This document shows positions 6,187 to 51,655 of a stretch of DNA of 64,000 nucleotides, piece after piece. Every line of letters starts with the position of its first letter. Within the stretch, counting starts at the first letter, position 1. This stretch comes from an uncultured Pseudomonadales bacterium (lineage in GTDB: Bacteria > Patescibacteriota > Microgenomatia > UBA1400 > PJMF01): positions 64,298 through 128,297 of the forward strand of contig CAZVBO010000003.1 in NCBI GenBank assembly GCA_964625685.1, read 5' to 3'. A program made the translations under genes and the position numbers. The notes under the pieces were generated by a model that did no database searches, was not told where the DNA came from, and was given only the letters and a program-made list of their open reading frames with translations.

Positions 6187-6681
6187 CTATTCGACAGGAT
6201 TATCTTGCTTGTGAATACCCGCTTTTATTTTTTCTGAACCCTTTTTAAACATATCCTCTTCAGTTAAGGGGCTCATCTTTATAGTTGTGGTATATTCCTC
6301 ATGTAAAGATTGTGTTGCCTTGGTTAACTCTTCATCACTCATTGTTTCAGACAAAATCTCTTTTAAGAATCTTGCCTTATGTTTTAAAGCGGTGAAATTA
6401 TGACCTGCGGTACTGAATTCTTTATGTTTCTTTGATGGATCGAGTACACCAGAAATTGCTGCTATGGCTGCAGTAAAAACCGAAAACCAAATAGTCCATT
6501 CAGGAAAAACACCAGCTCCTGTTAAAATTCCACTGATCGCAGATGCTGTAGCGGGGACTATTTCAAAGATGTACTTTGTCCTCCTTGCACGTTTTGCTGA
6601 GAGATAGTGTGATTCAGCGATGTATTCACAATTATCTCTAATAACCTCACATTCGTTAACTAACTTTTTTTTCAATGTCAT
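6187..6681 (-). CDS. Small 2-TM membrane protein, SLATT-like candidate effector partnered with the upstream nucleotidyltransferase
   Basis: 164 aa. Two adjacent hydrophobic helices (IVPATASAISGILTGAGVFPEWTIWFSVFTAAIAAISGVL). Its start overlaps the stop of the upstream gene (ATGA overlap at 6678-6681). Confidence 0.45.
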   Translation of the reverse strand: MTLKKKLVNECEVIRDNCEYIAESHYLSAKRARRTKYIFEIVPATASAISGILTGAGVFPEWTIWFSVFTAAIAAISGVLDPSKKHKEFSTAGHNFTALKHKARFLKEILSETMSDEELTKATQSLHEEYTTTIKMSPLTEEDMFKKGSEKIKAGIHKQDNPVE

Positions 6682-7622
6682 TCAACCTCCTCTGGGAAAA
6701 CGGTTCCAAATAATTCCCTCCAACCTGCAATTCTTGTAGTCTCTGGCAGGTTGGGGTTCAAGAGAGATATCATATTTTCTGAAATAATTGGCAAAGCTCT
6801 GGTCAAATATGATAAGGCTGGCTCTCGGATATAACGATCTGGAAAGTGAGAGCCTTGGAAATTAATCGGTTTATTCAGGTATTTCTGCATTTCGTTCACC
6901 ATATCAATTAGAAGCAGCGGAGTATTGATTGGAAAGTTATTTGCAATTCTGCGAGCTATAAGTCCTGGAAGTAACTCCGTTGCAAGTATTTCTAAATGGA
7001 CAGAGTCTAACCCCTCAATATCTAGAACATGACGCTTTAGGGCTTTGAGAACTTTGATAAAGGGTATTAATCTTCCACCTGTGGCTTTATTCATTTCTGT
7101 CAAGTAAACAACCTCAAAGTCGTAGTCAGCTATTTCCCAGCCATGTCCTTTCGCAACCCAATAACATCGGCCTTGTTGATAGGATTGAGCCCCATCTAAT
7201 GAAAGGCCTATGTTGTCACGGTATGCGGGAACGAGTTCTACCTTGATTTTTCCATCACCGTAAGGGAAGGTTACCGTTGGAGCATCTTGAACAGGATTCA
7301 TTGCAGAATATCTGTTGCTTCTTTGCAGTAATTCATCAAGAGTTCTAAGTGCTTGGTTGGAACTCAAGCCAGAAGGACTTCTAGTAGAGAAGGTGCCAAG
7401 TATCACTAGGATATCAATATCGAAAACATCATCTGGTCTTGGATGCACTCTGGTTTGTCTTTGCAATGAACCAATAAGCTTTGTTTCTATGGCTCTTGTC
7501 GAGTTATTTTCAAGATAAGTTCTTACTGCATTATGTCGCTGCTCAACCAAGCCCTGGTGAGTATCCTTCAGCTCGAGGTTTGATTGCAGCTTGGTAAAAT
7601 GTTTTCCTAAAAAAATTGACAT
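6678..7622 (-). CDS. Nucleotidyltransferase-fold protein, SMODS / CD-NTase-like candidate second-messenger synthase
   Basis: GS...[DE]h[DE]h pattern: IGSLQRQTRVHPRPDDVFDIDILV. 314 aa. Translationally coupled to the downstream 2-TM gene. Confidence 0.5.
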   Translation of the reverse strand: MSIFLGKHFTKLQSNLELKDTHQGLVEQRHNAVRTYLENNSTRAIETKLIGSLQRQTRVHPRPDDVFDIDILVILGTFSTRSPSGLSSNQALRTLDELLQRSNRYSAMNPVQDAPTVTFPYGDGKIKVELVPAYRDNIGLSLDGAQSYQQGRCYWVAKGHGWEIADYDFEVVYLTEMNKATGGRLIPFIKVLKALKRHVLDIEGLDSVHLEILATELLPGLIARRIANNFPINTPLLLIDMVNEMQKYLNKPINFQGSHFPDRYIREPALSYLTRALPIISENMISLLNPNLPETTRIAGWRELFGTVFPEEVE

Positions 7623-7831: not shown

Positions 7832-8299
7832 TTACAGTCCAACGCTGTCAGCACCGTAAGCAGCTTGTTCAGTGGTGAAACCTTCAAATTCTAGTTGTTT
7901 TATAAGACCATCTCTTGAGAAGCCTGACAAATCTTGATAGCTTTTAGCCTTTTTGGCAGCCTGTTCATTCCAGTCTGGACTAATTTTATCTACTGCGTAG
8001 GTAGCATCTTCTGTTGAGAATTTTTCAAATTCGAGCTGCTTGATTAAGCCACTTCTTGAAAAACCTGTCATACTGAGGTAAGAATTTGCTTTTCTAACAG
8101 CATTCTTCTGTGCTGTAGTCTCATTGGAAGTTTCTTCGACTTCGGCTGCTTCCTTAGCGTCACCTTTTTCCATTACTTCTGCTGATGGAGTTGAGTTATC
8201 AGATTTAGGTGTTTCATCTCCTGAACCAGCGATGGCGCCAATAACAAAGAGTACTACTAATGCGATAGCACCCCATTTGAGTAATTTTTTCATATTCAT
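7832..8299 (-). CDS. Ltp-family (phage superinfection-exclusion type) membrane-anchored protein with two tandem repeat domains
   Basis: N-terminal TM/signal region. Two repeats of KA(N/K)SY..(M/L)(T/S)GFSR.GLIKQLEFE.F(S/T)(T/E)E.A.Y.(V/A)D, matching the host cell surface-exposed lipoprotein (Ltp) repeat. Confidence 0.55.
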   Translation of the reverse strand: MNMKKLLKWGAIALVVLFVIGAIAGSGDETPKSDNSTPSAEVMEKGDAKEAAEVEETSNETTAQKNAVRKANSYLSMTGFSRSGLIKQLEFEKFSTEDATYAVDKISPDWNEQAAKKAKSYQDLSGFSRDGLIKQLEFEGFTTEQAAYGADSVGL

Positions 8300-10741: not shown

Positions 10742-13087
10742 GTGTGTCCGACTGGATGCACCCTCCCACAGATTGATATGTCTACTATAACAAACCGCAT
10801 ACCAGCAAACAATCAAGAATGGAGAGAACTTGGTGAGTACTACTTGAATCTTGGTTGGTCTATTATTCCAGTCACAAGTGACAAGAAACCGTTGATTAAG
10901 TGGAAGGAATTTCAAACCAAGCAACCAGCTACAGAACAAGTTGGTGAATGGGCTTCCAGCTCAAAGATAGCTGGCTATGCCCTCGTCACAGGCTCGATCT
11001 CTGGTGTTGTAGTTCTTGACCTTGATGAGGGTTCTGAATTTGACACCTCTACTTTACCTACTACGCCTTTCTCCCAAACTGGTTCTGGTGGCCGACACTA
11101 TTTCTTCAAATCACCTGATAAGACTATTAAAAATGCCGCTGGTTTTGTCAAAAACACTGACTTTCGAGGTGAAGGTGGCTATGCCATCTTGCCACCCAGC
11201 AAACATCCCTCTGGGAATCAATACTTTTGGCTGAGCAATCCAGAAGATACCGAATTGGCTGAAATGCCTGGGAGTCTTATCGACTCAATCAATGGTAACC
11301 AACAGTTAAAACTTAGCGTAAAAAGCGATGAAAATGTCTTTGAAGGTGTAGAAAAGTCTACACGTAATCACTCGGCTACTCAGGTAGCAGGATCGCTTCT
11401 CAGTCGTTACCCAAAAGACGAATGGGAAGCAGTCGTTTGGCCTCTGCTACAAGGTTGGAATACACAAAACAAACCACCTCTTTCAGCAACCGAGCTGAGA
11501 GCTGTATTTGACTCGATAGCCGAGCGTGAAGAAGGTCAGCCAGAACAAGATGAGGGAGGCTCCAATCGTCCCAGCCAAGCCAAACTGTTAGTTGAGATGG
11601 TCCTGGGCAGTAGTATCAAGCTTTTTACTAATCAGTTCCACGAGCCAGTCCTCACTTCACTTGAGACTGGATTCTTAACCTTCAAAATTAGTTCTTCCGC
11701 TACAAAACAGCTTCTCTTCAAGATGTTTTGGGATAGTGAAGGCAAACCACCTAGCTCCGAAGCTGTGAGCAATGCTATTACTACTCTCCAAGGCATTGCA
11801 ACCTATGACCGAGATAAAATCACTGTCTTCAATCGTGTCGGTAGACATAAAAACACAATCTACTATGACATTGGCGATGGCACTCATGTAATAGCTATCG
11901 ACAAAGACGGCTGGAGCATTGACAGTAGCTGCCCTGTCTACTTCAACCGTTTCTCTCACCAAAAACCACAAGTATTGCCCAAGCGTGGTGGCAATCTGGA
12001 AGAAATTCTTGCTTTCATGAACGTGCAGGACCAACAGCAAAAGTTACTAATCTTGACCTTCTTGGTTGTTAGCTTAATTCCAGATATCCCACGAGCCATG
12101 CTGGTACTTCATGGCGATCAGGGTTCGGCAAAATCAAGTCTGCTACGTATTCTCAGAGAAATGATTGATCCCAGCCAAGTGCCACTTCTCACTCCACCTG
12201 ACTCTATTCGTGAGTTGGTTCAGTTTGCCAGCCATCACTATGCCGTCTTTTTGGACAACCTCTCAACCTTGTCTGTTTCATTATCTGATGCCCTCTGCCG
12301 TTTGATAACTGGTGATGGTTTTACTAAAAGACAACTTTTTACTGATGATGAGGACGTACTCTATGCCTACAAGCGAGTGGCTGGCCTTTGTGGTATCAAC
12401 CAAGTCGCAACAAAAGCTGACCTGCTAGATCGTAGCATCATTGTGCCTTTAGAGCGAATATCTGACGGGGATAGACGTGAAGAAAAAAATCTGTGGCATC
12501 GTTTCAAAACAGACAAATCTCTTATTCTTGGAGCCTTATTTGATGCCGTAGCCGCTACTCTCCACACTGTACACGATATTGAACTTACTACCAAACCTCG
12601 CATGGCAGATTACTTCAAGTATGCCACAGCTGCAGCAATCCACTTGGGATATACCGAGCAAGATCTCTCTGATGCCTTCAATCAAAACGTCAAACAACAA
12701 AATGAAGAAGCCATCGACTCTTCACCTGTTGCTCAAACCATTATGGAGTTCATGAGGAACAAATCAAACCAAGAGCTACGCAGTTCAGATCTTTACAAAG
12801 AACTTTTTGAGATAGCTGAGAACCTCAAAATCAAACAGGGTTTTCCCAAATCACCCACTTGGCTGTGGCGGAAAATCAAAGATGTCCGACCTAATTTGAT
12901 GGCCTATGGCCTCAATGTCACCAAAGAAAAAATGGAGGATGGTACTTACATAAGAATCATAAAAACTGCCACCACTGCTTCCAGCACCTCTACATCAAAC
13001 AACTCTGGTCCTGAAAGCACTGGCAACACTGACAACAAAACCGTAGAAAACATGACCGAGGAGGAGATCGAGGAGGCACTCTTCTAA
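10742..13087 (+). CDS. Replication protein: N-terminal bifunctional primase-polymerase (PrimPol) domain plus C-terminal P-loop NTPase/helicase-like region
   Basis: PrimPol motifs VVVLDLDEG, GSGGRHYFF and DFRGEGGYAILPPS. Downstream Walker-A-like HGDQGSAKSS. GTG start at 10742 with AGGAGG just upstream; the alternative ATG is at 10778. Confidence 0.65.
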   Translation: MCPTGCTLPQIDMSTITNRIPANNQEWRELGEYYLNLGWSIIPVTSDKKPLIKWKEFQTKQPATEQVGEWASSSKIAGYALVTGSISGVVVLDLDEGSEFDTSTLPTTPFSQTGSGGRHYFFKSPDKTIKNAAGFVKNTDFRGEGGYAILPPSKHPSGNQYFWLSNPEDTELAEMPGSLIDSINGNQQLKLSVKSDENVFEGVEKSTRNHSATQVAGSLLSRYPKDEWEAVVWPLLQGWNTQNKPPLSATELRAVFDSIAEREEGQPEQDEGGSNRPSQAKLLVEMVLGSSIKLFTNQFHEPVLTSLETGFLTFKISSSATKQLLFKMFWDSEGKPPSSEAVSNAITTLQGIATYDRDKITVFNRVGRHKNTIYYDIGDGTHVIAIDKDGWSIDSSCPVYFNRFSHQKPQVLPKRGGNLEEILAFMNVQDQQQKLLILTFLVVSLIPDIPRAMLVLHGDQGSAKSSLLRILREMIDPSQVPLLTPPDSIRELVQFASHHYAVFLDNLSTLSVSLSDALCRLITGDGFTKRQLFTDDEDVLYAYKRVAGLCGINQVATKADLLDRSIIVPLERISDGDRREEKNLWHRFKTDKSLILGALFDAVAATLHTVHDIELTTKPRMADYFKYATAAAIHLGYTEQDLSDAFNQNVKQQNEEAIDSSPVAQTIMEFMRNKSNQELRSSDLYKELFEIAENLKIKQGFPKSPTWLWRKIKDVRPNLMAYGLNVTKEKMEDGTYIRIIKTATTASSTSTSNNSGPESTGNTDNKTVENMTEEEIEEALF

Positions 13088-13132
13088 TCTCCCCTCTACC
13101 CATAACTGTTACTAATAAACCAGGAGAAAACT

Positions 13133-13516
13133 ATGCAATGCACTTATATCAAAGCTAATAATCAACCTTGTAAGGCTCATGCCATGAAAGGAAGTGAGTT
13201 CTGTTTTACTCACAATCCCGAAACTCGTGATGAACACGCCCAAGCTGTAGTGCTTGGTGGACTCAACTCATCCAGAAAAGACAGCGTTGAGTTGCCTGCA
13301 ATTGATGTCCGTCAGCCTGATGGTGTGGTCCAGTTACTGGAAGAAACAATCAATGGCGTTCGTGATGGCAGTATCCCACCCAAAGTTGCCAGTACTGTTG
13401 GTTACTTGGCTGGACACTTACTAAAAGCCATTGAATCAGCAGATCTCGATAAACGATTAGAGGTGATTGAACGAGTGATTTTGGAACGCAAATCCATAAT
13501 GAAAGGTTCCAAATGA
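13133..13516 (+). CDS. Hypothetical protein (127 aa) with an N-terminal Cys/His cluster
   Basis: AGGAG RBS. C..C..H..C..H pattern in the first 30 residues. Confidence 0.4.
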   Translation: MQCTYIKANNQPCKAHAMKGSEFCFTHNPETRDEHAQAVVLGGLNSSRKDSVELPAIDVRQPDGVVQLLEETINGVRDGSIPPKVASTVGYLAGHLLKAIESADLDKRLEVIERVILERKSIMKGSK

Positions 13517-15021
13517 AAAACTTCTCTATCCAAGCTCTAGCTGGTGTCTTAACGGCAAAAGAACGAGCCAAAATCATTGCAGAATACATCGTCAAAGGTG
13601 ATGAGACTGGTGAAGATTTAGGCCATGAAATCAACAAGATAAAGATGAATATGAGCAATAATCAAATAACCGAATTCAACTTCTACATGGATATGATCCA
13701 AACCGTTCATGTGGTCATGGAAGCCGACTTTCAGACCATGTATTTACGCTTTTTTCTTTATTCTCAGCAACTCGAAAAAATATATCAGCAGTGGTCGATG
13801 AGTATCTACAGCCACTTCACTCGCCGAGATCTGAACTGGTTACCTAAAATTGTCACTCCACAAGGTTACCAAGAATTGTACGAAGAACAAAAAGCCCAAG
13901 AATTATCAGCTGTTTTCTCTCTAGAAACTTTGGCTGAACACGAGGCACTCGCCAAACTCCAGTCAGAAGGTTGGTGGAAAGACACCGATCTATTTATGGT
14001 CCACAAACAGCTGGTAGCTGATGCCAATAAAACCGAGGACCAACTGATTGATGAGTATCTTGACCATGTTGAAGAGCGATTAGCTGCTTATCTCGAATAC
14101 AAAGATAAGAAAAATGCCTTTCTACACCTTTATCAGGAATATGCAGAGTATGAAGGCAAAAGTCGTGACGAAATGAGAGAAATGGTGACAGCCAAGTATG
14201 ACTTTACTCCCACCGATCCAGCTGACACTCAAAAATGGCTTGGTGAGATTGAAAATCAAAAACAACGACTGCAAAAGCTGATTGACAATGGAGTGCTTGA
14301 AGCCGCCATAGTCGGCAATGAATTTGGTTTTTACGGGACCTCAGAGGATAAGGGCAAACCAGGAATCACAGCTACCAGTTGGTATAACTACTCAAAAAAG
14401 TACGATATAGGCTTCAACGATTTTGTTGATGATGTCGATAACCTCATTTACTTTTGCCACAACGATGTAGCTATTATTCAGACCAAACAGAGTCAAGAAA
14501 AGAAAACTGGTGAGCTTACTGCCAATATCATTAAGAAACGAATGCTTGAACACCTTGACCACTTCAACGCAATTACTTACGAACCAATAAGTGGTGATAA
14601 AAAATTGCACCTAGAAGCCAAGACCTTGGAACAAATTAAGCAGTTGCTTTTCTCAATATCAGTAATCAAATTAAGACTCCTTGCCTATATTAGAGTGATT
14701 GAAGCAGTTGAGAACTTTTACTTTGATGGTACTCAGATTGTGTCTCGTAAGACCTGGTATGCCAAAGCCGCTCAAGAGCACTATGATTTTATGCTCCAAC
14801 AACATCAGCAGTACGTTGATTTTGTCTACAACTATTTTGGCAACTTTACTATTGGCTCAGAGGACCCTATTTTTGACTGCCATGATGACATTCAATTCGC
14901 AGAACCAACCGAGGAAGAAATTCAAAAAGTCACTAAGGAGCAGATGAGCTTCATGTTAGAAAAGGCTACTAAAGATAGTCATTTTCGCCCATCACGAACT
15001 CCATTTGACGAAAGAGTATGA
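13513..15021 (+). CDS. Hypothetical protein (502 aa)
   Basis: ATGA overlap with the upstream gene (translational coupling). No domain recognised. Confidence 0.4.
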   Translation: MKNFSIQALAGVLTAKERAKIIAEYIVKGDETGEDLGHEINKIKMNMSNNQITEFNFYMDMIQTVHVVMEADFQTMYLRFFLYSQQLEKIYQQWSMSIYSHFTRRDLNWLPKIVTPQGYQELYEEQKAQELSAVFSLETLAEHEALAKLQSEGWWKDTDLFMVHKQLVADANKTEDQLIDEYLDHVEERLAAYLEYKDKKNAFLHLYQEYAEYEGKSRDEMREMVTAKYDFTPTDPADTQKWLGEIENQKQRLQKLIDNGVLEAAIVGNEFGFYGTSEDKGKPGITATSWYNYSKKYDIGFNDFVDDVDNLIYFCHNDVAIIQTKQSQEKKTGELTANIIKKRMLEHLDHFNAITYEPISGDKKLHLEAKTLEQIKQLLFSISVIKLRLLAYIRVIEAVENFYFDGTQIVSRKTWYAKAAQEHYDFMLQQHQQYVDFVYNYFGNFTIGSEDPIFDCHDDIQFAEPTEEEIQKVTKEQMSFMLEKATKDSHFRPSRTPFDERV

Positions 15022-15040
15022 AATCAGAGAAAATAGCTAT

Positions 15041-15112
15041 GCACTCAACAATCAGCGATAGAACTTTTTTAATGGCCGTCTTGGACAACCGAAGTTCTTT
15101 CGCGTTGAGTGC
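15041..15112 (+). repeat. Imperfect inverted repeat (GCACTCAAC...GATAGAAC / GTTCTTTCG...GTTGAGTGC) around a ~29-bp core, immediately upstream of the serine recombinase gene; candidate recombination (att) site
   Basis: Arms 15041-15064 and 15094-15112 seen directly in the sequence. The position mirrors attP-next-to-int layouts of large serine recombinase elements. Confidence 0.35.
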
Positions 15113-15138
15113 ACCAGGGCGGCCATTTAAGTATAAGG

Positions 15139-16773
15139 ATGAATATGTATCAAAGCACAGACACCTCACAGTTTGACCACGTTAAGAACTGTCTCATTTA
15201 CGCTCGTGTTAGCACTAGCCGCCAAGTTGAGGAAGGTCACTCACTTGAAGATCAAATTGAACGCCTAACTAAATTTGCTAAAGACCGTGAATGGCGAATC
15301 CTCGAAGCGTTCAAAGACGGCGGAAAAAGTGGTGGTTCAACATCAGGACGAGCTGAATTCAATCGTATGCTGGAACGTTGTGCTGATGATCCTGACGTTC
15401 ATGCAGTTTTACTCGAAGAAACTGATCGCTTTGCTCGTAATGCTCAAGACCACTTGGCCGTCAAATCATTTCTCAAAAAACATAACGTGGTCCTGATTGC
15501 TACCCAGCAGCCTAACTTTGGTGATGACCCTGTGGGCAACTTTGTTGACCTCATTATGGCTGGAGCCAATCAGCTGCAAAGAGAAATAACTGGTGTTAAG
15601 ACTAAACGTACTATGGTTGGTTTGGCAGAAAAAGGATTACAACCAGGTGGGGCTGTTCTTGGCTATCTCAACTCATATGAGAAAGGTGTGCCCTGGAAAA
15701 TAGATAAAGAGCGAGTGTACTATGTAAAAGAAGCCTTCCGCCGATATAACACTGGTAACTACTCTATCCATACCCTTGGCGATGAAATTTATGCAGAAGG
15801 CTTTCGTACTCGAAATGGCAAACGTGTTCATTCAAGCAACATTCAAAAAATCCTAACCGATGTTCGTTATCTTGGTTGGGTCAAGTACGATGGCAAAATC
15901 TATAAAAATGGCCAGCACCCTCAACTTATCAATATCACGGAATTTAAAAAAGCGGAGGCAATTATGAAAAAACACAACAAAGGAGCAAATAGGTCACGAA
16001 AGCACAACTGGTTTTTGGCAGGGTTAGTCTACTGCCAACACTGTGGCTCATTGATGTCTGGTGAGAAGCATGAAAAAAGCACTGGCAAAATCTACAAGTA
16101 CTATCGCTGTATGGGACCTAAAAATCATGGTCATACTTGCAACGAACCCTATGCCAACATCGAGAAGGTCCATGACCAACTGTACAAATGGATCACTGGC
16201 TTGGAATTCACCGACACCTTTTTTGATGGCCTTCGCCAAGAGCTAATGTCTCTCATGGAAAACCAAGGCGATACTGTAAAAGACAGACTCGACACTCTCC
16301 AAAAGCGTAAAGAATCAATAGAAAAGAAAATGGATAAGCTGGAAGATCAAATGCTTTCAGAGGTTATTCCACAGGATAGAATCGAGAAAAAGTACAAACC
16401 CTTGCGAGATGAGCTAACAGCCGTTGAAGCCAAAATCGAGAAACTCAATATGCCTTCAAATAATATGGATGAGGAAAAGATCGAAACAATTATCAAGTTC
16501 ATGAAACGCTTGCCAGAACTTTATGATGCCTTCAACAAAAAAGAACGTAAACAATTTCTTAAGTGGTTCACCACAAAGATCATGATAAAGGATAAGAAAA
16601 TTGTTGATATTGCCTATACACCAGGCTTTCAAGCCATGGTTGATAGAGACATCGTTCGGATAAGCGAAACGTGGCTCGAGAAATGGTATGAATTCGGAAA
16701 AATTGATTGGGTCAGCGAGCTGGAATATCCGGAGTGGACGGTAAAGGAAGTGGGGAGGTTCTTACAATATTGA
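15139..16773 (+). CDS. Large serine recombinase (resolvase/invertase N-terminal catalytic domain, recombinase domain, zinc ribbon, coiled coil)
   Basis: CLIYARVSTSRQ (catalytic Ser region), ...DGGKSG..., and zinc ribbon CQHCGSLMSG...YYRC. About 545 aa. Start moved to MNMYQ behind an AAGGA RBS. Confidence 0.85.
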   Translation: MNMYQSTDTSQFDHVKNCLIYARVSTSRQVEEGHSLEDQIERLTKFAKDREWRILEAFKDGGKSGGSTSGRAEFNRMLERCADDPDVHAVLLEETDRFARNAQDHLAVKSFLKKHNVVLIATQQPNFGDDPVGNFVDLIMAGANQLQREITGVKTKRTMVGLAEKGLQPGGAVLGYLNSYEKGVPWKIDKERVYYVKEAFRRYNTGNYSIHTLGDEIYAEGFRTRNGKRVHSSNIQKILTDVRYLGWVKYDGKIYKNGQHPQLINITEFKKAEAIMKKHNKGANRSRKHNWFLAGLVYCQHCGSLMSGEKHEKSTGKIYKYYRCMGPKNHGHTCNEPYANIEKVHDQLYKWITGLEFTDTFFDGLRQELMSLMENQGDTVKDRLDTLQKRKESIEKKMDKLEDQMLSEVIPQDRIEKKYKPLRDELTAVEAKIEKLNMPSNNMDEEKIETIIKFMKRLPELYDAFNKKERKQFLKWFTTKIMIKDKKIVDIAYTPGFQAMVDRDIVRISETWLEKWYEFGKIDWVSELEYPEWTVKEVGRFLQY

Positions 16774-16786
16774 GAGGAAGGAGATG

Positions 16787-17902
16787 TCAATTGAACTTCT
16801 TAGAGTTCTTCTTATTTATTGGGGTAATCGCACCAAGTGAAGATTCTTCATCGGGAGTAGATACATTTCTATAAAACTTCTTCGCTTCTGAATTAAATTT
16901 TTCTACCATATTTCTCATCCTTGAGTTCTCGGCAACCTTACCTTTAATTTCAATTACACGAGCATTTTCTAGGAACCTAGTCATCTGATCCAGCTTAGAA
17001 AAGAATGAGTCAGCCGTTTCCGGCCTATCTCGAGCAACAACTTCCTTTGCTGCTGGGATAGCCTCTTCAGGAGATTCATCAAGAAATACCTTTCTCGCAG
17101 GTTTACACCTCAAAATATCAGCTAAGTCTTTCCTCACGTCATAAGCAGCTGAACGAACTCTCCCAGCTAATACCCATTTAATAAACTTTTCATCAGTTAA
17201 TAAATCTGGACTTTCTTTCTTGATTTTTTGCAAATCGGCACTGCGACAATATTCATAAAAGATGCTAAATTTTTTAATCTCAGCCTCTTTATCATCAATC
17301 TTGGAAATATTGGGGAGATACCTATCTCGCATTAACTCATAGGCGGCAATTTGGGTCCGTAAGGAACTAACATTCATTCCAACTATTTGGGAGATTTCCT
17401 GAAGACTCATCCCATTCTCATCGCTCATTTTATAAATATAGCTAGCTTTTTCGTATGGATCCCATTGTGTTTTCCCCTCAATATGAAGTTTTCCCAACAG
17501 TAAAAAGAGATCTCTAACGTCTATTTCTTGAAGCAGCCTTTTTGCCCGAATCTTTCTCCATTTGTTCTTTTGTCCTTCCGGAGCATTCTTATACAAGTGC
17601 CTATAAGCACAAAGCCTTGTATTACCCTCAACAGCTTGTCCATTTAGCACTAATATTTCTTCAAGTAGCCCTCCATTTATTCTTATGTCTTCAGCTAAGT
17701 CTTTTGTTGAGTCCAACGCCCATAAACTCTTTTCAATAAGATCTTGTCCAAGGTCTTTGCCGTATTTACTTAAAACATAGTTTATTCTTGGATTTTCCGG
17801 ATAATAATCGAGTTGGAAGATATCTATTTCCTCAGTACTAACTGGGATCTTTTTATTCCCTATCGTCATGAAAGAAGTGGCTTGTTTATCTGGCATATCC
17901 AT
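16787..17902 (-). CDS. ParB/Srx-fold N-terminal domain protein with a C-terminal HTH-like region (ParB-like 1)
   Basis: ParB box-like motifs YYPENPR and GGLLEEILVL...EGNTRLCA. Shares the WDPYEKASY[IL] motif with the paralog at 19714-20730. Its start is 3 nt after the SNF2 stop. Confidence 0.55.
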   Translation of the reverse strand: MDMPDKQATSFMTIGNKKIPVSTEEIDIFQLDYYPENPRINYVLSKYGKDLGQDLIEKSLWALDSTKDLAEDIRINGGLLEEILVLNGQAVEGNTRLCAYRHLYKNAPEGQKNKWRKIRAKRLLQEIDVRDLFLLLGKLHIEGKTQWDPYEKASYIYKMSDENGMSLQEISQIVGMNVSSLRTQIAAYELMRDRYLPNISKIDDKEAEIKKFSIFYEYCRSADLQKIKKESPDLLTDEKFIKWVLAGRVRSAAYDVRKDLADILRCKPARKVFLDESPEEAIPAAKEVVARDRPETADSFFSKLDQMTRFLENARVIEIKGKVAENSRMRNMVEKFNSEAKKFYRNVSTPDEESSLGAITPINKKNSKKFN

Positions 17903-17905
17903 ATT

Positions 17906-19318
17906 TTAATTCAATAACTCAATTATTTCCTCTTTTGTTAAATAATTATCATGATTTATTTCTAGTGAATCACCCTGAATTACTCTAGCAACATCTTGTT
18001 TTTTCGCTAATCTGTCTTCAACAAATAGATCGATTGAGTCAGAACAAAGAAGCTTAATAATCCGGCAACGTTTCTCCTGTGAGATTCTATGTATTCTGTC
18101 CTGAGATTGTAGATAATCGACCAAGTTAAAAGATCGATCAAGGTAAATGGCATTATTAGCGGCGGTGAGGGTCAACCCTTCCCTTGCTGCAGAAGGGTTG
18201 GCAACCATAACCTTATATTCAGGATCCTCCTGAAAAGATTTAATATATTTATTTCTCCGAGCAATCTCAACTCCACCATAAATATTAAGAGATCCATACT
18301 TACGGTATCTAGACTTTAGTCCTTTGACATTGTCAACAAATGAGGACCATATAATTACCTTTTCTCCGCTGTGAACAATTTCCTTAACCAATTTATCTAG
18401 AGCAGTAAATTTTGCAGGAGTTTCCTTATAGTCCTTCACAACCAAACCTGGGTTACTAGATATTTGAACTAAGCGTAGAAGCTTTTTTAATATTGATTTG
18501 GCTTCATCAACAATTTTTTCTTCAGGAGTATTGATTATTTCAATGAGTAGTTCTTTTTTGAGTTTCTCATATATTTCGGATTGTTTGGGTGCCATGTCAA
18601 CCACAATCTGCTCATACACTTTCTCTGGAAGCTCAAGAACATTTTCCTTTAAACGTCTTATCGATATCGGGGATATTTTTTTCTGTAATTCTAAATAAAG
18701 ATCCGTTGAACCTTTATCCAAGTTCCCATACCGTTTTTTAAATACCTTAAAATCTTTCCCAAGACTTTCTCCTTTATCGAGAAAATAAAACTGTGCCCAA
18801 ATATCCGTTGGTTTGTTTGCTACAGGCGTACCGCTCAGAATATATCTCCTGGTGGCCAATTTAGATAAACCATTAATTGCTTCAAAGGTTTGGCTCTCTG
18901 GATTCTTAATCCTCTGTGACTCATCAAGAACAACCACAAATTTTTGAGACTCTAGAAGTAACTCAACAATCTCCAATTCCGCTTTAACACCCTCATAATT
19001 AAGAATAAAAATATTCGCAGAAGTAAGAAATCTGTATCCCTTTGATCTGCCACTGCCAGTAATTACAGCTGGAACTAAAAAACTGTGTTTCTTAATTTCA
19101 GACTGCCAGGTATACATTAACGTTTTTGGACAAACGATTAATGCGGCGTCTGTTTTTTTAGTCTTTAACAAAGAAATTATTGTATCTATGACTTCCTTGG
19201 TCTTACCGACCCCTTGTTCATCAAAAAGAGCTGCGTTTGGTTTGGAAACAAGAAAATTTATAGCTTCAAGCTGATGAGGGAAAGGTTGTGTTTTCTTCCT
19301 AAGGTAGTTTTTAGTCAT
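17906..19318 (-). CDS. SNF2-family (SF2) helicase/ATPase
   Basis: Motif I DEQGVGKT, motif II VVLDESQRIKN, motif III LSGTPVANKP and motif VI QSQDRIHRISQ. Start taken at MTKNYLRK, 2 nt after the upstream stop. Confidence 0.8.
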   Translation of the reverse strand: MTKNYLRKKTQPFPHQLEAINFLVSKPNAALFDEQGVGKTKEVIDTIISLLKTKKTDAALIVCPKTLMYTWQSEIKKHSFLVPAVITGSGRSKGYRFLTSANIFILNYEGVKAELEIVELLLESQKFVVVLDESQRIKNPESQTFEAINGLSKLATRRYILSGTPVANKPTDIWAQFYFLDKGESLGKDFKVFKKRYGNLDKGSTDLYLELQKKISPISIRRLKENVLELPEKVYEQIVVDMAPKQSEIYEKLKKELLIEIINTPEEKIVDEAKSILKKLLRLVQISSNPGLVVKDYKETPAKFTALDKLVKEIVHSGEKVIIWSSFVDNVKGLKSRYRKYGSLNIYGGVEIARRNKYIKSFQEDPEYKVMVANPSAAREGLTLTAANNAIYLDRSFNLVDYLQSQDRIHRISQEKRCRIIKLLCSDSIDLFVEDRLAKKQDVARVIQGDSLEINHDNYLTKEEIIELLN

Positions 19319-19319
19319 A

Positions 19320-19712
19320 TTATTCTGGTAGCAACCTATCGGGGATTGGCAGCAATAGTATGTTTCCATCCTGGGAGACCCCACCTACTAAACCCTGAAT
19401 CCGATTTTCTGCTGAGATTGGAAAACCCAAATATATTTTTAAATCAGTAATTACATCTTTTTGCGCAGATATAAAATCCTCCAGCTGTTCATGGGTTCTT
19501 GTACCAAAATCATCAGCGGTTTTTGCTTCTCCGATTGCCAAGCTACCTGACTTCATACCAATGAGATCCGGGCGGTGCCTCTTTATTTTTGGTGGTAATG
19601 ATATCTTTTGCTCATTTTCTGAATAACCCTCAAAGGAGATAACCTCATAGCCGTCAAGGATCATTTTCCTAGCTACTAGCTCGGCTATAAACTGATGCGC
19701 TTTTGAAGCCAT
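19320..19712 (-). CDS. Small protein (130 aa) with a PD-(D/E)xK-like motif; candidate nuclease
   Basis: RPDLIGMKSGSLAIGEAKT fits the PD...E-x-K pattern. Tightly coupled on both sides: 1-nt gap upstream, 2-nt gap downstream. Confidence 0.35.
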   Translation of the reverse strand: MASKAHQFIAELVARKMILDGYEVISFEGYSENEQKISLPPKIKRHRPDLIGMKSGSLAIGEAKTADDFGTRTHEQLEDFISAQKDVITDLKIYLGFPISAENRIQGLVGGVSQDGNILLLPIPDRLLPE

Positions 19713-19713
19713 A

Positions 19714-20730
19714 TTATTTCAATACGGATTGAGCAGTTATTATTAGCTGTTCAATCTTCGCTTTCTTGGCAGGTTCCTCTTCTCTTATTTGCGTTACCTC
19801 ATAATGTCTTAAATGCTTAAGTTGTTCAGTTACCTTTTCTATATCTCTAAATAGTGGCGAGACAACATCAGGTTTAACTGAGGCAAGTAAATCCATCGCT
19901 TCGTCATACCCTTTTTTCTTGAAGACTTCTGCAACTTCATCACTAGAAAAAATTTCTGGTAAATCACGAACGTCAATTGCTCGTGGTATTTTTTCTTCAG
20001 CAACCCATCGACAATAATCGTCTATAGAAAACTCACCAGAACGCAGTAAATTCCTTACCTTCTGCTTTCCAACCAACTCGACAAAATAACTGTACTTTTC
20101 TAAAGGATTGTCAACATCTTCTCCGTAATGAGGTAGGAAGTTGTCCCTCATAACTTCAAATGCCTTGATATCATGTTTGATTTCTGTCTCACTAGATCGA
20201 GCTTCTCTGGCTAATCTTTCCGTTGTGTATCCATTCTCCTTTAAATTAAATAGATAACGGGCTCTTTCATAGGGATCCCAAGCTTGCTTTCCTCCCAGGT
20301 GATATTCAAGTCTGAGAAAAGCAATTGTCTCCTGTGGTGTAGTGGAAGGTAAAACCCTAGCTTTAATTGTCTTCCATTCTTCTTTGTGGGGGTATTTGCG
20401 TGAAAGATCTTCAAACACTAGCCTGCGAGTGTTTCCCTCGATAACAATGTATTCATCACGCTGTTGGACAACCCAAATAGGTTCTAAAAGTCCTTTTGTC
20501 TCAATCGATTCCTTAAGAGAGTCATACTTGGCTTTTGTCTTAACCTTCAAGCCAAGCATAAGTTGTTTTTGAGTAACGTCTTTTTGCTTAACCCCCTTGG
20601 AAATATAGCTATCAATCAAAAACTGAATTCTTGGGTTATCAACATCGAGAAATACTTTATCAATGGGAATTTCTTGAGAAGGTACACTCCCTATTAGTTC
20701 TGATGATAGCTTTTGTTTCTTCATATTCAT
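19714..20730 (-). CDS. ParB/Srx-fold N-terminal domain protein (ParB-like 2)
   Basis: IDKVFLDVDNPR, GLLEPIWVV...YIVIEGNTRRLV, and the WDPYERARYLF motif shared with ParB-like 1. Confidence 0.55.
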   Translation of the reverse strand: MNMKKQKLSSELIGSVPSQEIPIDKVFLDVDNPRIQFLIDSYISKGVKQKDVTQKQLMLGLKVKTKAKYDSLKESIETKGLLEPIWVVQQRDEYIVIEGNTRRLVFEDLSRKYPHKEEWKTIKARVLPSTTPQETIAFLRLEYHLGGKQAWDPYERARYLFNLKENGYTTERLAREARSSETEIKHDIKAFEVMRDNFLPHYGEDVDNPLEKYSYFVELVGKQKVRNLLRSGEFSIDDYCRWVAEEKIPRAIDVRDLPEIFSSDEVAEVFKKKGYDEAMDLLASVKPDVVSPLFRDIEKVTEQLKHLRHYEVTQIREEEPAKKAKIEQLIITAQSVLK

Positions 20731-20739
20731 GATTGATTA

Positions 20740-21591
20740 TCATTTCGAATTGTTATTGAAAATCATAATTTCTTCAACAACTCTTCTTTTGCTTGTAAAA
20801 CCAGCAATGCTTCTTCTGACGGAGACCGTTTTAAAATTGAATCCTTCCTTTAGTAAATCAGCTTCTTCGGACTCAGCATAACTTACAACAAACTGGATTC
20901 CCTTTTTATCGAGTCTGTCCATCCATTTCTTGAGGCACATTATATCATTCATTCCGAATATTGACTTGTCGTATTTGTTAAATATTTTTTTTGATCTCAC
21001 ACTAAAAGGAGGATCCATATAAACAAAGTCACCTTTACGAACTTTTTTCAAGGTTTCTTCAAAACCATTTGAGTGCAATTCAGCATTTTTTAACAATTTT
21101 GCCGCAGTGAAGAAAACCTCGTCTGTGGGCATAACACCCTTATCATCACCACAATACGGAACATTAAATTCTCCTTTACTGTTTGTTCTATACAACCCAT
21201 TGAAACAAAATCTGTTTAAGTAGATAAACCTTGCAGCTCTTTTATTCGGAGACAGTTTGTCGGGCTTTAACGCTCGAATTTTATAGTAATCCTCTTTGCT
21301 TTTATTCAGCTTCTTTATCGCTTTTAGGACAGAGCCAGTATCATTTGAAATCTGTCTATAGGTAGTAATTAATTCTTCATTAATGTCACTCAACAACGCT
21401 TTTTTAGGAGCCAGGCTAAAAAATAAACAGGCTGAGCCAACAAATGGTTCAACGTACCTATTAAAGTCATCACTCCAAAATTCAGATAAAACAGGAATGA
21501 GTTGTCGTTTACTTCCAGCCCATCTTAAAAAGGGCTGAGCAACACTAGTGGTTTTATTATTTTTTTTCATATTTAAACACCAACTAGACAC
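20740..21591 (-). CDS. DNA N6-adenine methyltransferase, Dam/T4Dam family
   Basis: N-terminal FLRWAGSKR, motif I EPFVGSACLFF and motif IV DPPF. Start at either 21591 or 21570. Confidence 0.8.
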   Translation of the reverse strand: MSSWCLNMKKNNKTTSVAQPFLRWAGSKRQLIPVLSEFWSDDFNRYVEPFVGSACLFFSLAPKKALLSDINEELITTYRQISNDTGSVLKAIKKLNKSKEDYYKIRALKPDKLSPNKRAARFIYLNRFCFNGLYRTNSKGEFNVPYCGDDKGVMPTDEVFFTAAKLLKNAELHSNGFEETLKKVRKGDFVYMDPPFSVRSKKIFNKYDKSIFGMNDIMCLKKWMDRLDKKGIQFVVSYAESEEADLLKEGFNFKTVSVRRSIAGFTSKRRVVEEIMIFNNNSK

Positions 21592-21807
21592 TATGTTAAT
21601 TCAGTATACGATAGCGGATCACCTTTGGCGATCCTCATTGTTCTTTAGCAACTGTGACCGATTACGACCGCTTTTGTGGGACGTTTGTTACTTGGTTGGA
21701 CTAGTTATACCCTGGAAACAAAGTCTGGAGAATTTTAAGGCATTCATTGAAGACTAATAGCAACAATCTTTAACGTTAACCCAATCAATAGGGGGAAAGG
21801 TATCAAG

Positions 21808-22629
21808 CTATATACTGTGTTTTTCCTCAATGTAATGCCCTGCCAGATTATCATCTCTTGAAGTCCAGGTTATTGTGGATTTTGTCTTAAGATAAAGCTC
21901 GTGGGCCAGGCTAATGAATTTTTTGTGCCGAGTGGACAGTTTTCCTTTTCGAAATTGTTTCTCATGATATTTGCCCCAACCTCTGACAGCCCAATTTGCC
22001 GCAATCTTACTATCAGTCTTAACTTCAGTTGGTTTGCCCTCAGAAAAACCTCTTAAACAGGCAATGATGCCCAATATTTCACCTTCGTTGTTCGAAAAAT
22101 CGCCAATCCACTTTTCCATAAGAATGGTGCCTTCTTCATCACAGACAACGACAATTGTTTGTTGCCGCCCCTTTTGTCCATTGTTTTTTGTACCCGCATC
22201 ACAAAACAATATCTTTTGGGGTGTTGGTTTAGGATTAGCCTTTTTGGAAGTAGGCGTGTTATCAACTGCGCCGGGGATGGAGACAGAGATGTTTGACTTC
22301 AGTTTTCCCTTATTTTGTTGAAGCTCGGCCGCAATACGAAAAGCCACTTCTTTTCCAACTTCTTTGATAAATGCTTTCGAAGGCTTCCAAGTTATATTTA
22401 AGCCAGGCTGATAAGTCGTGGCATGTGTTCCGCATTTTTTGCATTTTACCCACAAACCTTTAGTTAGACTGCTAAGAGTGTAATATCCCTCACAAAGAGT
22501 AGAACAACGCTCACATCTTACTTTTTCGAAAGCATCATTGTTATCTTCTTGGTCAAATAGTCCGGCTGATTTCATATTTTTAGAATTTCTACTCAATTCT
22601 GATGATACAGAAAAACTGATTTCTATCAT
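21808..22629 (-). CDS. Zinc-ribbon plus RNase H-like domain protein
   Basis: N-terminal CERC...CKKC ribbon. C-terminal RNase H-like acidic residues: FCDAG, EGEILGII, KTDSK and RDDNLAGH. Confidence 0.5.
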   Translation of the reverse strand: MIEISFSVSSELSRNSKNMKSAGLFDQEDNNDAFEKVRCERCSTLCEGYYTLSSLTKGLWVKCKKCGTHATTYQPGLNITWKPSKAFIKEVGKEVAFRIAAELQQNKGKLKSNISVSIPGAVDNTPTSKKANPKPTPQKILFCDAGTKNNGQKGRQQTIVVVCDEEGTILMEKWIGDFSNNEGEILGIIACLRGFSEGKPTEVKTDSKIAANWAVRGWGKYHEKQFRKGKLSTRHKKFISLAHELYLKTKSTITWTSRDDNLAGHYIEEKHSI

Positions 22630-22843
22630 AGTTGACCATCATAGAAAATCTTAGTTGAGAGTTTTTGCCGGATTACCGGTATTTTTCACTCAATTTTCTA
22701 CTTGCGATTGCTGACAAACACGAGCCCTGAGCCACTGTGGCCGCTTTTGTGAGGCTTTCCGACCTCACCTGGCAGTTGTTTGGGGGTCTCAACAAATAAA
22801 ACGCCCGTTTGGGGAGTTGTTGGAGAAATTCAAACAAATATTA

Positions 22844-23455
22844 TCAATCACCATGAAGATAAACCACTGCACCGACAATTTTATCATCCATCACGTAAGG
22901 AACAATAACTTCCGCCTCTGAGTAAAGGTCGTTAAGATATGTCATTCTCAGCCCATTAACATTAGCTTGTAAGCCATAAAGCTTGTCCCTCTTACCCAAC
23001 AGGATATCTTTTATCAAAGCTTCTTTGCGCGTCTCAATTGACGTGGTGATAACACCGCCTGAGAAGAACAGCTTTACAATTCGGTCCTGATCCAAGGTAA
23101 TAAAATACATGGGTTGATTATTGGCTAAACTCACATCGCTGAAGTATCCGGGAACGTCTATGGTAGAGGACTCAGATGCGGTAGCTTCTGTTAATAAATC
23201 CAATCTGGATCTAATGTCTGCCACACATTCAGCATTCCCATTGCATTCAACTGCTTCCGGCAGTATCTTGGTAAAAACTTCATCAAAGAACTGTGGATTC
23301 TCCCGCATTAACTCGGAAACCTGAGCGCTTCTGAGTGTATAGACCCCCTTACCACTCTCATACAAACGCCAAGATACGAAGGCAAGTCCAACAAGTACTA
23401 AAACAATAAGAGCAGTAGCAATACCTAAAAGAGGTTTAGTGAAACGTTTTTTCAT
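22844..23455 (-). CDS. Hypothetical membrane-anchored protein (203 aa)
   Basis: N-terminal TM helix. No family recognised. Confidence 0.4.
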   Translation of the reverse strand: MKKRFTKPLLGIATALIVLVLVGLAFVSWRLYESGKGVYTLRSAQVSELMRENPQFFDEVFTKILPEAVECNGNAECVADIRSRLDLLTEATASESSTIDVPGYFSDVSLANNQPMYFITLDQDRIVKLFFSGGVITTSIETRKEALIKDILLGKRDKLYGLQANVNGLRMTYLNDLYSEAEVIVPYVMDDKIVGAVVYLHGD

Positions 23456-23472
23456 ACTGACTTAATTTTAGC

Positions 23473-24465
23473 TTAAAGCTTCTCGATCTCCCAGCCATCA
23501 TTGTCATAAACAATCACCTGGCCACCTTGAGTGATGGTAAGGCTAACGGTTGGGTAGCGGGTGTTTTTGATTGAAGCACACCAGACACCATCGTCTCGTT
23601 GATAGGCAGTTTCAAGAGTCTGGTCCGTGTCTCCACATTGCTCATACTCTTCCGTGTGAGGATCCTCGTAATCAACCCACCTGACAAAGAAGTTGCCAGG
23701 TTTAGTACCTTGAAACTCATAAGTCATCTGAGCGATATCAACACCCAGAATATCCTGATGATCTTTCATAAACTTTTCTGCCACCGGCCGGATGGCTTCG
23801 GCAGTAGTGTAGCGGGGAGTATTGTCATATTCTGGCTGTGGATCAAACCAACGGGAATCATCATCATTAGTACCCCATCTGCGCTCAGCCTCTCCAACTT
23901 CAACAATGTAGTTGGTGTTGGGATCAACAGTAAAGCCAAACCCACCAGCTGAGTAATGTTCTGAAGCAGGACTGGAATAATCGGTCCCAGTATCATCGGG
24001 ATTGCCATTAAAGCGACTACACAAAAACTCAACCGGCATGTCAGAAGATCCTAGGAACTTCTGAATATTAGTCACTGCTTGTTCTCGCTCTTGTGCAGAG
24101 CGGGCAGTCAACAAACAAAACTTCTCTCGGGCTTCTTTATAAACCTGCGTATCCTTATTAGGGTTTTCCTCCATTACTGCCAGCAATTCTGAGATTTCTG
24201 TAGCCTTTTTTAACTCAGAGGATTGATCACCCAAAAGAAGCCTAACTGAGTCATTAAACGACAACTTATCAAAACAACCAGTGAAGTAATTCCATTTATC
24301 ACCCTCCATCTGAGTTGTGATCGGGAACTGCATATGGGTTTGGGCAAGACAATACCGCTCCTTCGCACCTTTGACACGCAGTACACCAATAAACAGAAGT
24401 ATCGAGAGAATAAACAGCACCCCGACAAGAGGTATAAGACGATTTTTAGATTTCTTCATTGTCAT
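23473..24465 (-). CDS. Hypothetical membrane-anchored protein (330 aa)
   Basis: N-terminal TM helix. No family recognised. Confidence 0.4.
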   Translation of the reverse strand: MTMKKSKNRLIPLVGVLFILSILLFIGVLRVKGAKERYCLAQTHMQFPITTQMEGDKWNYFTGCFDKLSFNDSVRLLLGDQSSELKKATEISELLAVMEENPNKDTQVYKEAREKFCLLTARSAQEREQAVTNIQKFLGSSDMPVEFLCSRFNGNPDDTGTDYSSPASEHYSAGGFGFTVDPNTNYIVEVGEAERRWGTNDDDSRWFDPQPEYDNTPRYTTAEAIRPVAEKFMKDHQDILGVDIAQMTYEFQGTKPGNFFVRWVDYEDPHTEEYEQCGDTDQTLETAYQRDDGVWCASIKNTRYPTVSLTITQGGQVIVYDNDGWEIEKL

Positions 24466-40883: not shown

Positions 40884-40893
40884 AATAGTTATT

Positions 40894-41208
40894 TTAATAC
40901 CTTGTGCACTTGAACAGCTCTTTTGAGTGTTGGCTGACAATCTTTCGCGCCTTTTTGATAACCTCTTTTACTTCGTCCCCTGATAGTTGATAGTATGAAT
41001 TTCGGCCTTCTCTCTTGTTTTGTACGAGCCCGCAATCTAAAAGACATGCCAAATGGGTTGAGGCGTTCGGCTGCGACAGCTTTGTTTCTTTAACTATTTC
41101 TGAAACAGTTTTTGGGCCGTCCAAAATGGTTTCTAATATTGAAAGCCGAGACTGGTCAGCGAATCCTTTAAAAAGTTTAGCTTCTAGTTGCACTTGTCTT
41201 CTAGTCAT
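40894..41208 (-). CDS. ArsR/SmtB-family metal-sensing repressor
   Basis: LSILETILDGPKTVSEIV...ASTHLACLLDCGLV. Confidence 0.7.
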   Translation of the reverse strand: MTRRQVQLEAKLFKGFADQSRLSILETILDGPKTVSEIVKETKLSQPNASTHLACLLDCGLVQNKREGRNSYYQLSGDEVKEVIKKARKIVSQHSKELFKCTRY

Positions 41209-51595: not shown

Positions 51596-51655
51596 GATTC
51601 GAACCTACAACCTTGAAGTTAACAGCTTCCTGCTCTGCCATTGAGCTATCGGGGA
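51581..51655 (-). tRNA. tRNA-Asn (anticodon GTT), encoded CCA
   Basis: Manual cloverleaf. Acceptor UCCCCGA/UCGGGGA, D stem GCUC/GAGC, anticodon loop CU-GUU-AA, T arm GGUUCGAAUCC. Starts with U like E. coli tRNA-Asn. Confidence 0.75.

Follow-up and report, generated by a model that had tools for sequence, protein, structure and literature searches.

A Dam-methylase variant of a widespread ParB-nuclease-SNF2-ParB gene core: a candidate modification-guided restriction system

Introduction

Multi-gene, modification-linked restriction systems are known in several forms, and the operon described here shares individual components with a number of them. It consists of five genes on the minus strand (16787-21591) of a 64,000-nucleotide stretch of DNA (positions 64,298 to 128,297 of contig CAZVBO010000003.1, assembly GCA_964625685.1), which was analysed over its full length and is called the window below. 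In the order of transcription, these genes encode: (i) a Dam-family methyltransferase; (ii) a ParB-like protein (ParB-like A); (iii) a small, putative nuclease; (iv) an SNF2-family translocase; and (v) a second ParB-like protein (ParB-like B). The last four constitute a core which is apparently undescribed. On balance, the comparative evidence tips towards the locus being the Dam-methylase variant of a widespread and apparently undescribed restriction system, ATP-driven and guided by modification, whose modification modules are interchangeable.

Among the described systems, PD-lambda-5 is reportedly a two-gene defence system made up of a ParB-like protein and a D12-like methylase, while the name of the Hma system stands for helicase-methylase-ATPase. 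In the HmaA protein, a PD-(D/E)xK nickase domain is fused to an SNF2 helicase, and anti-phage defence requires the activity of each (PMC11232893). ParB-like proteins serve in the systems Dpd (PMC12839542) and Dnd (PMC10853773). In the case of MADS, the components MAD6, MAD7 and MAD8 are mandatory (bioRxiv 10.1101/2023.03.30.534895).

Comparison With Described Systems

No model for the core exists in PADLOC (2023 version), NCBIfam or Pfam, and no description of the cassette was found in open-access papers or preprints, although a recent description could have escaped this search. In all of these sources, the initial impression that the operon matches no nameable defence architecture is upheld. 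Likewise, none of the defining gene sets of DISARM, Dpd, Dnd/Ssp, Zorya, PD-lambda-5, MADS, BREX or ParABS was found at the locus. The sequence-only reading had set aside DISARM, which needs DrmA/DrmB, as well as Dnd and Dpd, whose partners are different ones; the locus did not turn out to be any of these known systems. PADLOC models were compared with ten genes in and around the operon, and DpdA, DpdB, DpdC, DrmB, ZorA, ZorB and ZorC had no match among these genes, while DrmA gave only a partial match (1.2e-7) inside the SNF2 protein. The SNF2 protein itself matches ZorD (1.2e-59), DpdE (2.4e-41), DrmD (4e-23) and HmaA (5.7e-16), in the helicase cores only.

Like the cassette, Hma combines an SNF2 motor, a PD-(D/E)xK nuclease and an adenine methylase, and those relatives of the cassette that carry a radical S-adenosylmethionine (SAM) enzyme (see below) add an ATPase. 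Unlike in Hma, however, the nuclease of the cassette is a separate protein of 130 amino acids, the cassette always includes two ParB paralogues, an HmaC-like ATPase is absent from the window, and the HmaA match of its SNF2 protein is weak and partial.

Dpd and Dnd resemble the cassette in that they join a complex modification module to a multi-protein restriction module and have ParB-like proteins (DpdB, DndB) and, for Dpd, the SNF2-like DpdE; moreover, relatives of the cassette of the radical SAM type carry a DpdB-like gene (1.4e-16), which was seen only in these distant loci. On the other hand, the cassette lacks DpdA/TGT, DpdC and DndACDE (neither DndACDE nor SspABCD has a PADLOC, Pfam or NCBIfam match at the locus), its ParB paralogues carry EGNTR instead of DGQHR, and its modifier is either a Dam methylase or a B12-dependent radical SAM enzyme.

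In class 1 DISARM, too, an SNF2 protein and an adenine methylase share an operon of a defence island and methylation serves as self-marking, but the cassette is devoid of DrmA, DrmB and DrmC. The DrmD models recognise only the generic SNF2 core and score much lower than those of ZorD and DpdE, and the methylase of the window is of the D12 class. In type I Zorya, an SNF2 protein is accompanied by a restriction-fold (Mrr-like) nuclease effector and ZorD is the best PADLOC match of the SNF2 protein; nevertheless, only positions 443-896 of the 908 in the ZorD profile are matched and Zorya has no modification module.

PD-lambda-5 shares with the cassette the pairing of a ParB-like protein with a D12-class methylase, but it contains neither an SNF2 protein nor a small nuclease. 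The matches to PD-Lambda-5_A (a model of ~450-500 amino acids) are weak (the best being 1.6e-7 and 2.1e-5) and cover only ~80-190 N-terminal residues (1.6e-7 to 9e-3), and the methylase matches PD-Lambda-5_B at 5.5e-14 vs. 4e-76 for MTase_II. Regarding the DpnII cassette (dpnM, dpnA, dpnB), M1.DpnII is the closest relative of the window methylase (3.8e-49) and the DpnII cassettes of five species have the core inserted in them; the window, however, lacks both a DpnII endonuclease and a second methylase. MADS was considered and rejected: the scanned window genes gave no match to mad6-8, and mad2, which was seen near distant loci, is only the methylase of that system.

Components of the Operon

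The open reading frame (ORF) table of the window confirmed five co-directional minus-strand ORFs at 16787-21591. In the order of transcription, from the methylase to ParB-like B, the genes are separated by stop-to-start gaps of 9, 1, 1 and 3 nucleotides, the third of which is measured with the ATG at 19318 as the start of the SNF2 gene. Both the coordinates and the tight packing (gaps of 1-9 nucleotides) described initially were hence reproduced.

The first gene (20740-21591) encodes a D12-class N6-adenine DNA methyltransferase, whose proposed membership of the Dam family is well founded: it matches PF02086 in Pfam (5.9e-48), TIGR00571 'dam' in NCBIfam (4.1e-67; 227 bits, with a cutoff of 115) and MTase_II in PADLOC (4e-76), and the motifs EPFVGSA (FxGxG-like) and DPPF are visible by eye in its translation. 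Among proteins with solved structures, its relatives are M1.DpnII (2dpm, the best match), the Dam enzyme of Escherichia coli (7e-28) and T4 Dam (7e-15), all of which are GATC-specific. Because its closest solved relatives are all GATC enzymes, GATC is also the likely target of the window methylase. The longest ORF begins with the GTG at 21591, but the true start is most likely the ATG at 21570, which gives the protein of 276 amino acids that was called on identical metagenomic contigs.

ParB-like A (338 amino acids; 19714-20730) consists of a ParB/Srx N-terminal domain, a helix-turn-helix (HTH) domain and a helical C-terminal region. ParB-like B (371 amino acids; 16787-17902) is indeed its paralogue, as had been proposed (27% identity, E 9e-29), and the motif WDPYE[KR]A[SR]Y was recovered in the translations, as was the RPDLIGMKSGSLAIGEAKT noted in the 130-amino-acid protein. 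The ParB_N profile of Pfam gave a marginal score (0.0099), PDB searches with both protein sequences yielded marginal matches only (E > 0.1) and a profile search reached ParB at 1.7e-3, so that recognition of the ParB fold depended on a fold search. In this search, a ParB N-terminal fold with a Box II-like GxxR was found, followed by an HTH. Both paralogues keep an N-terminal NPR motif as well as the motifs EGN(T/S/R)R and W..(Y/F)E.A, and in ParB-like B the motifs NPR, EGNxR and W..E.A are invariant across 13 divergent homologues; these motifs stand where we take the arginine-rich Box II (GERRxRA) and Box III to lie. ParB-like B further matches phrog_3694 (3.4e-13) and, with its N-terminal part only, the PADLOC models PDC-M38A (8e-9) and PD-Lambda-5_A (1.6e-7).

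The 130-amino-acid protein (19320-19712) found no match in Pfam, PADLOC, NCBIfam or PHROGs, but it is a real conserved gene with an invariant H6, HRPD (46-49) and GEAKT (61-65). Its structural model predicts a restriction-endonuclease fold with the conserved D...(E/D)xK triad, resembling the cleavage domain of FokI and N.BspD6I and having no recognisable DNA-recognition domain. A stand-alone PD-(D/E)xK nuclease is therefore the probable product of this gene: the fold and the triad that the sequence-only reading had anticipated were both present. A full profile search of 1.84 billion representatives retrieved 504 members of the family, nearly all of them of 130-145 amino acids. A few members form the C-terminal part of proteins of 333-340 amino acids (P0295, P0333, P0334); these may be natural fusions, which could reveal the direct partner of the nuclease.

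The fourth gene (17906-19318) encodes a minimal SNF2-family ATPase/translocase of 470 amino acids, composed of PF00176 (8.7e-41) and Helicase_C PF00271 (5.5e-14) and free of accessory domains. Inspection by eye identified GVGKT, DESQ, SGTP and QSQDRIHRISQ, i.e. intact motifs I, II, III and VI, in agreement with the intact helicase expected. Although the longest ORF runs to 19384, it is the 470-amino-acid form that fits the lengths of the homologues.

Conservation and Distribution of the Core

Homologous loci were collected with a ParB-like A (ParBA) profile from one genome per species (GTDB representatives), which yielded at least 241 loci, of which 80 were fetched for locus analysis. The core is hence present in at least 241 species genomes of both Bacteria and Archaea, including Candidatus Daviesbacteria, Chloroflexota, Planctomycetota, Acidobacteriota, Bacteroidales, Prevotella, Clostridia, Blautia, Ruminococcus, Bacilli, Proteobacteria, Thermoplasmata and other archaea. 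In tblastn searches of the fetched loci, ParBA, SNF2 and the homologue of ParB-like B (ParBB) follow each other in that order in essentially every complete locus; the full order ParBA-nuclease-SNF2-ParBB is kept in nearly all of the 80, and the identities of the components co-vary across loci. All the readable gaps between ParBA and SNF2 (75/75) contain a protein of ~135 amino acids with the pattern H...PD...GEAKT...(H/R)(S/T)..Q, whose D...(E/D)xK triad is intact in 74 of them. Since the small nuclease sits with ParBA, SNF2 and ParBB across loci, the conserved unit is the four-gene core ParB-nuclease-SNF2-ParB and not a methylase/nuclease pair.

That the five genes as a whole are conserved together holds within the clade of the window: among contigs with homologues of the small protein (46-60% identical), the order methylase, ParBA, nuclease, SNF2, ParBB recurs in L005, L007 and L010, and the same order is seen in L013. 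In L008 the methylase is divergently oriented relative to the core, and most of the 80 loci have another partner.

The above bears on the suggestion that the nuclease is the Type II partner of the methylase, which did not survive. An ordinary Type II pair (the Dam methylase and the 130-amino-acid nuclease) interleaved by chance with ParB and helicase genes would account for a D12 methylase and a PD-(D/E)xK protein in one operon. But the nuclease family occurs only between ParBA and SNF2 in all readable loci, tied to ParB-SNF2-ParB; a radical SAM enzyme replaces the D12 methylase in 58 of the 80 loci; the nuclease has no recognisable DNA-recognition domain; and the methylase type changes within the clade of the window while the core remains 58-64% identical. 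A chance interleaving is accordingly very improbable.

Outside cellular chromosomes the core is rare. It was found in none of 50,697 GenBank phage genomes, in 7 of 72,556 plasmids (all large and alphaproteobacterial: six rhizobial and one from Roseomonas) and in 5 of 2.9 million viral contigs. These figures speak against two further explanations. According to the first one, the operon is an anti-restriction or establishment module of a mobile element, in which a DarB-like methylase-SNF2 dyad and ParB nickases protect or prime the DNA of the element in a new host. In the polyvalent proteins of phages and conjugative elements, adenine methylases and ParB domains are widespread partners of SNF2 ATPases (PMC5512222), the SNF2 protein of the window matches phrog_62 at 1.2e-117, the operon adjoins a PrimPol/serine recombinase element and, in L008, the core lies beside a type IV secretion system. 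Apart from its near absence from phages, plasmids and viral contigs, however, most of the 80 loci are chromosomal, without transfer genes and with a radical SAM enzyme instead of a methylase, and a conserved stand-alone restriction-fold nuclease is no feature of DarB-type modules. We regard a module of this kind as improbable.

The second explanation takes the ParB and helicase genes to serve partition and replication, as they would in a plasmid or phage, and the Dam methylase to be an orphan. A ParB fold with an HTH and the PrimPol replication gene nearby agree with it. Nonetheless, no ParA-like family recurs among 669 neighbouring ORFs, and the core, which is absent from phages and nearly so from plasmids, is always accompanied by the nuclease and a modification enzyme. 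In the window, two Pfam scans covering the operon flanks (20 proteins) gave no ParA-like match; parS sites were not searched. Partition is thus scarcely credible as the role of the operon.

Interchangeable Modification Partners

The partners of the core were identified by clustering the 669 neighbouring ORFs of the 80 loci and scanning representatives of the clusters. A modification-type enzyme adjoins the core in every locus with enough flanking sequence, and its identity varies. The most frequent partner, which immediately precedes or follows the core in 58 of the 80 loci, is a protein of ~480-690 amino acids with an invariant CxxxCxxC; 36 of 39 members match Radical_SAM PF04055 (best 8.7e-20) and 21 of 39 match the B12-binding domain PF02310 (best 1e-11). 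Furthermore, a GHKL (HATPase_c_3) ATPase occurs near the core in 26 loci, and a DndB/DpdB-like DGQHR protein, accompanying the radical SAM type, in 8 loci. D12 methylases lie near the core in ~16 loci. In the archaeal locus L033 it is an N6_N4 methylase that adjoins the core, while in L013 (Daviesbacteria, the closest genome) a divergent D12 enzyme of 457 amino acids stands beside it. In the window itself, an hmmsearch of all ORFs detected no homologues of the radical SAM, GHKL or DndB-like partners.

When the SNF2 proteins are arranged in a neighbour-joining distance tree (which carries no support values), the loci with a D12 methylase separate into two clades, both embedded among lineages linked to a radical SAM enzyme: (i) the clade of the window; and (ii) a Bacilli/Clostridia clade together with a Saccharibacteria locus. 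These two clades suggest independent swaps of the modification module. Even within the clade of the window the methylase has been exchanged (276-amino-acid Dam type vs. ~450-amino-acid D12 type), with cores that are 58-64% identical. The Dam methyltransferase is thus one of several interchangeable modification partners of the core, and it is the modification module of the variant in the window. Interchangeable modification genes around a constant effector core are a pattern known from restriction-modification-type systems.

In five Bacilli/Clostridia species (L048, L066, L068, L072 and L077; e.g. L072 6128-12572), the core is nested in a DpnII cassette, in the order D12 methyltransferase, N6_N4 methyltransferase (dpnM/dpnA-like), core and DpnII endonuclease (Pfam DpnII, 3.4e-109). 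The presence of a dedicated restriction enzyme in these loci is one of the reasons to consider that the core might be an accessory to DNA modification, or to the sensing of modification, instead of a restriction arm. This could take two forms: (i) ParB and SNF2 load or spread the modifying enzyme, as DpdB assists DpdA, and the nuclease nicks DNA for access; or (ii) a Type IV-like module attacks foreign-modified DNA and merely travels with methylases. In the same direction, the ParB-like ATPase DpdB is required to insert preQ0 (PMC12839542), DndB regulates phosphorothioation (PMC10853773), and a DpdB/DndB-like gene stands beside the radical SAM type in the 8 loci mentioned. Yet Dam-type and N6_N4 methylases work alone, and the core is kept unchanged when they replace the radical SAM enzyme; the nuclease triad, intact in all but one of 75 loci, suggests that DNA cutting matters; and the Type IV-like form leaves the operon coupling to the methylase (0-9 nucleotides) unexplained. 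We therefore hold an accessory role to be rather unlikely, although it deserves more attention than the explanations weighed above.

Neighbourhood of Homologous Loci

The sampled neighbours of the core match PADLOC models of methylases (mad2 type, 8), Type II restriction endonucleases, AbiL, AriA (PARIS), OLD/Toprim ATPases and several candidate systems. Individual loci add to this picture: an OLD-family ATPase and prophage genes adjoin the core in L010, a type IV secretion system in L008, and PIN and toxin-antitoxin genes in L059 and L109, while integrases or serine recombinases lie beside it in some loci. A context of mobile elements and defence islands is therefore supported, in qualitative terms, by the relatives of the operon.

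Two groups of uncharacterised neighbours were also observed. Proteins of the type DUF6996-DUF6997-DUF7226 are repeatedly paired with D12 or N6_N4 methylases beside the core (e.g. L059 8614-9912, L074 13884-15149, L008 7289-8053 and L012 4081-4572), and they may be an uncharacterised family of Type II restriction endonucleases; in some loci, such a protein lies on one side of the core and a D12 methylase on the other. Similarly, a family of ~410 amino acids, with no Pfam or PADLOC match, is encoded by the next gene downstream of the core in seven loci of Bacteroidales (L037, L038, L052, L060, L061, L063 [13860-15098] and L064), and it may be a lineage-specific extra component.

Proposed Function

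If the locus is a modification-guided restriction system, its components could act as follows. The methylase would mark host DNA, probably at GATC, and the four-gene core would police DNA without that mark. The two ParB/Srx paralogues would bind DNA via their HTH domains and close as a nucleoside triphosphate (NTP)-gated, probably heterodimeric, clamp or sensor. They would then recruit or license the SNF2 motor, which would translocate on double-stranded DNA, and the small FokI-like PD-(D/E)xK subunit would nick or cleave the DNA without the mark. In most relatives, the role of the methylase would fall to the B12-binding radical SAM enzyme, often together with the GHKL ATPase and the DpdB/DndB-like protein, and this enzyme would presumably write a different DNA mark. 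In this scheme, the methylation target, the discrimination between self and non-self, the ParB clamp, the formation of a complex and the cleavage of unmodified DNA are inferred.

The computational support for a restriction system comes from the coupling of the genes, the folds and motifs of their products, the conservation of the core, the adjacent modification enzyme, the D12 clades, the DpnII nesting and the genomic context. From such comparisons, a defence function of the cassette appears plausible. A more specific version can be put forward tentatively, with distinctly less confidence than the restriction system in general: a new modification-based immunity in which a heterodimeric, NTP-gated, ParB-type clamp performs the surveillance and licenses SNF2 and a FokI-like mini-nuclease, the ancestral mark is made by a B12-dependent radical SAM enzyme (e.g. 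C-methylation or another radical-installed adduct), and the window holds a core re-wired to Dam methylation.

Several points weigh against a restriction role. The support is wholly comparative, and the count of defence genes in the neighbourhoods is qualitative, with no genome-wide baseline compared. The ParB-like proteins of Dpd and Dnd act on the modification side, and hence the paralogues might help to write the mark instead of reading it. Methylases of the Dam type function without helper proteins, and mobile elements often carry orphan Dam genes. In the window, the observed/expected ratio of GATC is 0.79, which falls among the values of other 4-mer palindromes and indicates no distinctive depletion. 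Finally, where the core is nested in a DpnII cassette, the mark is already read by a conventional endonuclease, and no separate task for the core is evident.

Genomic Setting in the Window

At the borders of the five-gene set, the only sizeable non-coding gap is the intergenic region upstream of the methylase (21592-21807, minus strand), presumably the promoter region of the operon. A promoter and terminator scan gave one weak sigma-70-like match on the minus strand (21631..21603) and no terminator-like sites on that strand within the operon; compared with shuffled sequence, the number of matches in the region was not above chance. The GC content over 17-22 kb is 0.36-0.38 vs. about 0.40-0.45 in the flanks, so the AT-rich cassette noted at first has a real basis, but the difference is modest.

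On one side, the operon is flanked by plus-strand genes (10742-16773) that form the backbone of an integrative element: a PrimPol of 781 amino acids (10742-13087), a protein of 127 amino acids, a protein of 502 amino acids without an assigned family, and a large serine recombinase (15109-16773), the last being where the initial description had placed it, adjoining the operon. On the opposite flank there are an RNase H-like gene and two genes for membrane proteins. The 502-amino-acid protein was considered as a hidden radical SAM partner, and this was ruled out by the hmmsearch of all window ORFs. It has copies of at least 90% identity in several metagenome-assembled genomes of Candidatus Woesebacteria, so that the host of the operon is probably a member of this group within the candidate phyla radiation; the contigs bearing it were searched for an element without the cassette, but all belonged to a single sample series and shared the same context. 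A search of 5000-26000 for att-type direct or inverted repeats bounding an island returned only short, imperfect, chance-like matches, and the DNA of 16500-24400 had no similarity match among GenBank phages. Mobilisation of the operon as a unit with the serine recombinase is plausible, but no att repeats were found and recombinases adjoin only some of the homologous loci.

Other genes of the window deserve mention. About 10 kb from the operon, a SMODS nucleotidyltransferase gene (6678-7622, minus strand; PF18144, 8.5e-14) lies directly upstream of a gene for a SLATT_4-like protein with two transmembrane segments (6187-6681, minus strand; weak match, 5.6e-4); the two (6187-7622) look like a minimal CBASS-like signalling/effector pair. 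Another gene encodes an Ltp-type surface lipoprotein (7832-8299, minus strand; PF07553, 1.5e-33), of a family linked to prophage superinfection exclusion. It suggests that the whole stretch of 6-25 kb is a mosaic of mobile-element and defence genes. Further away, a second large serine recombinase gene (50009-51595, plus strand) overlaps with its 3' end a tRNA-Asn gene (51581-51655, minus strand), which was the only hit of an Rfam scan of the window; this region (50009-51655) is probably the edge of another integrated element. The two P-type heavy-metal ATPases (32568-34706 and 39003-40940, minus strand; named Cu2+-exporting and Cd2+/Zn2+-exporting in JGI clusters) are ordinary host genes.

Biological Significance

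The cassette accounts for gene clusters that RefSeq leaves unnamed, of the type 'hypothetical protein / ParB N-terminal domain / DEAD-box helicase / radical SAM'. In Rhizobium leguminosarum WSM1325 (pR132505, RLEG_RS34120-34150), for instance, the genes of one copy are labelled as hypothetical (two of them), DEAD/DEAH helicase, ParB N-terminal domain protein, DGQHR, radical SAM and ATP-binding. The radical SAM type is also carried by Blautia and Clostridium paridis. If the proposal of a modification-guided restriction system is true, a widespread immune system would be added to those already described, found in no fewer than 241 species, among them gut Firmicutes, Bacteroidales, rhizobia and bacteria of the candidate phyla radiation. 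Its sensor would be built from ParB-type proteins, whose roles known so far lie mainly in chromosome segregation and transcriptional silencing, besides accessory functions in Dnd and Dpd. The radical SAM partner would point to a possibly unknown enzymatic DNA modification, and the natural swap to Dam would provide a simple experimental handle, i.e. the same core combined with a well-understood mark.

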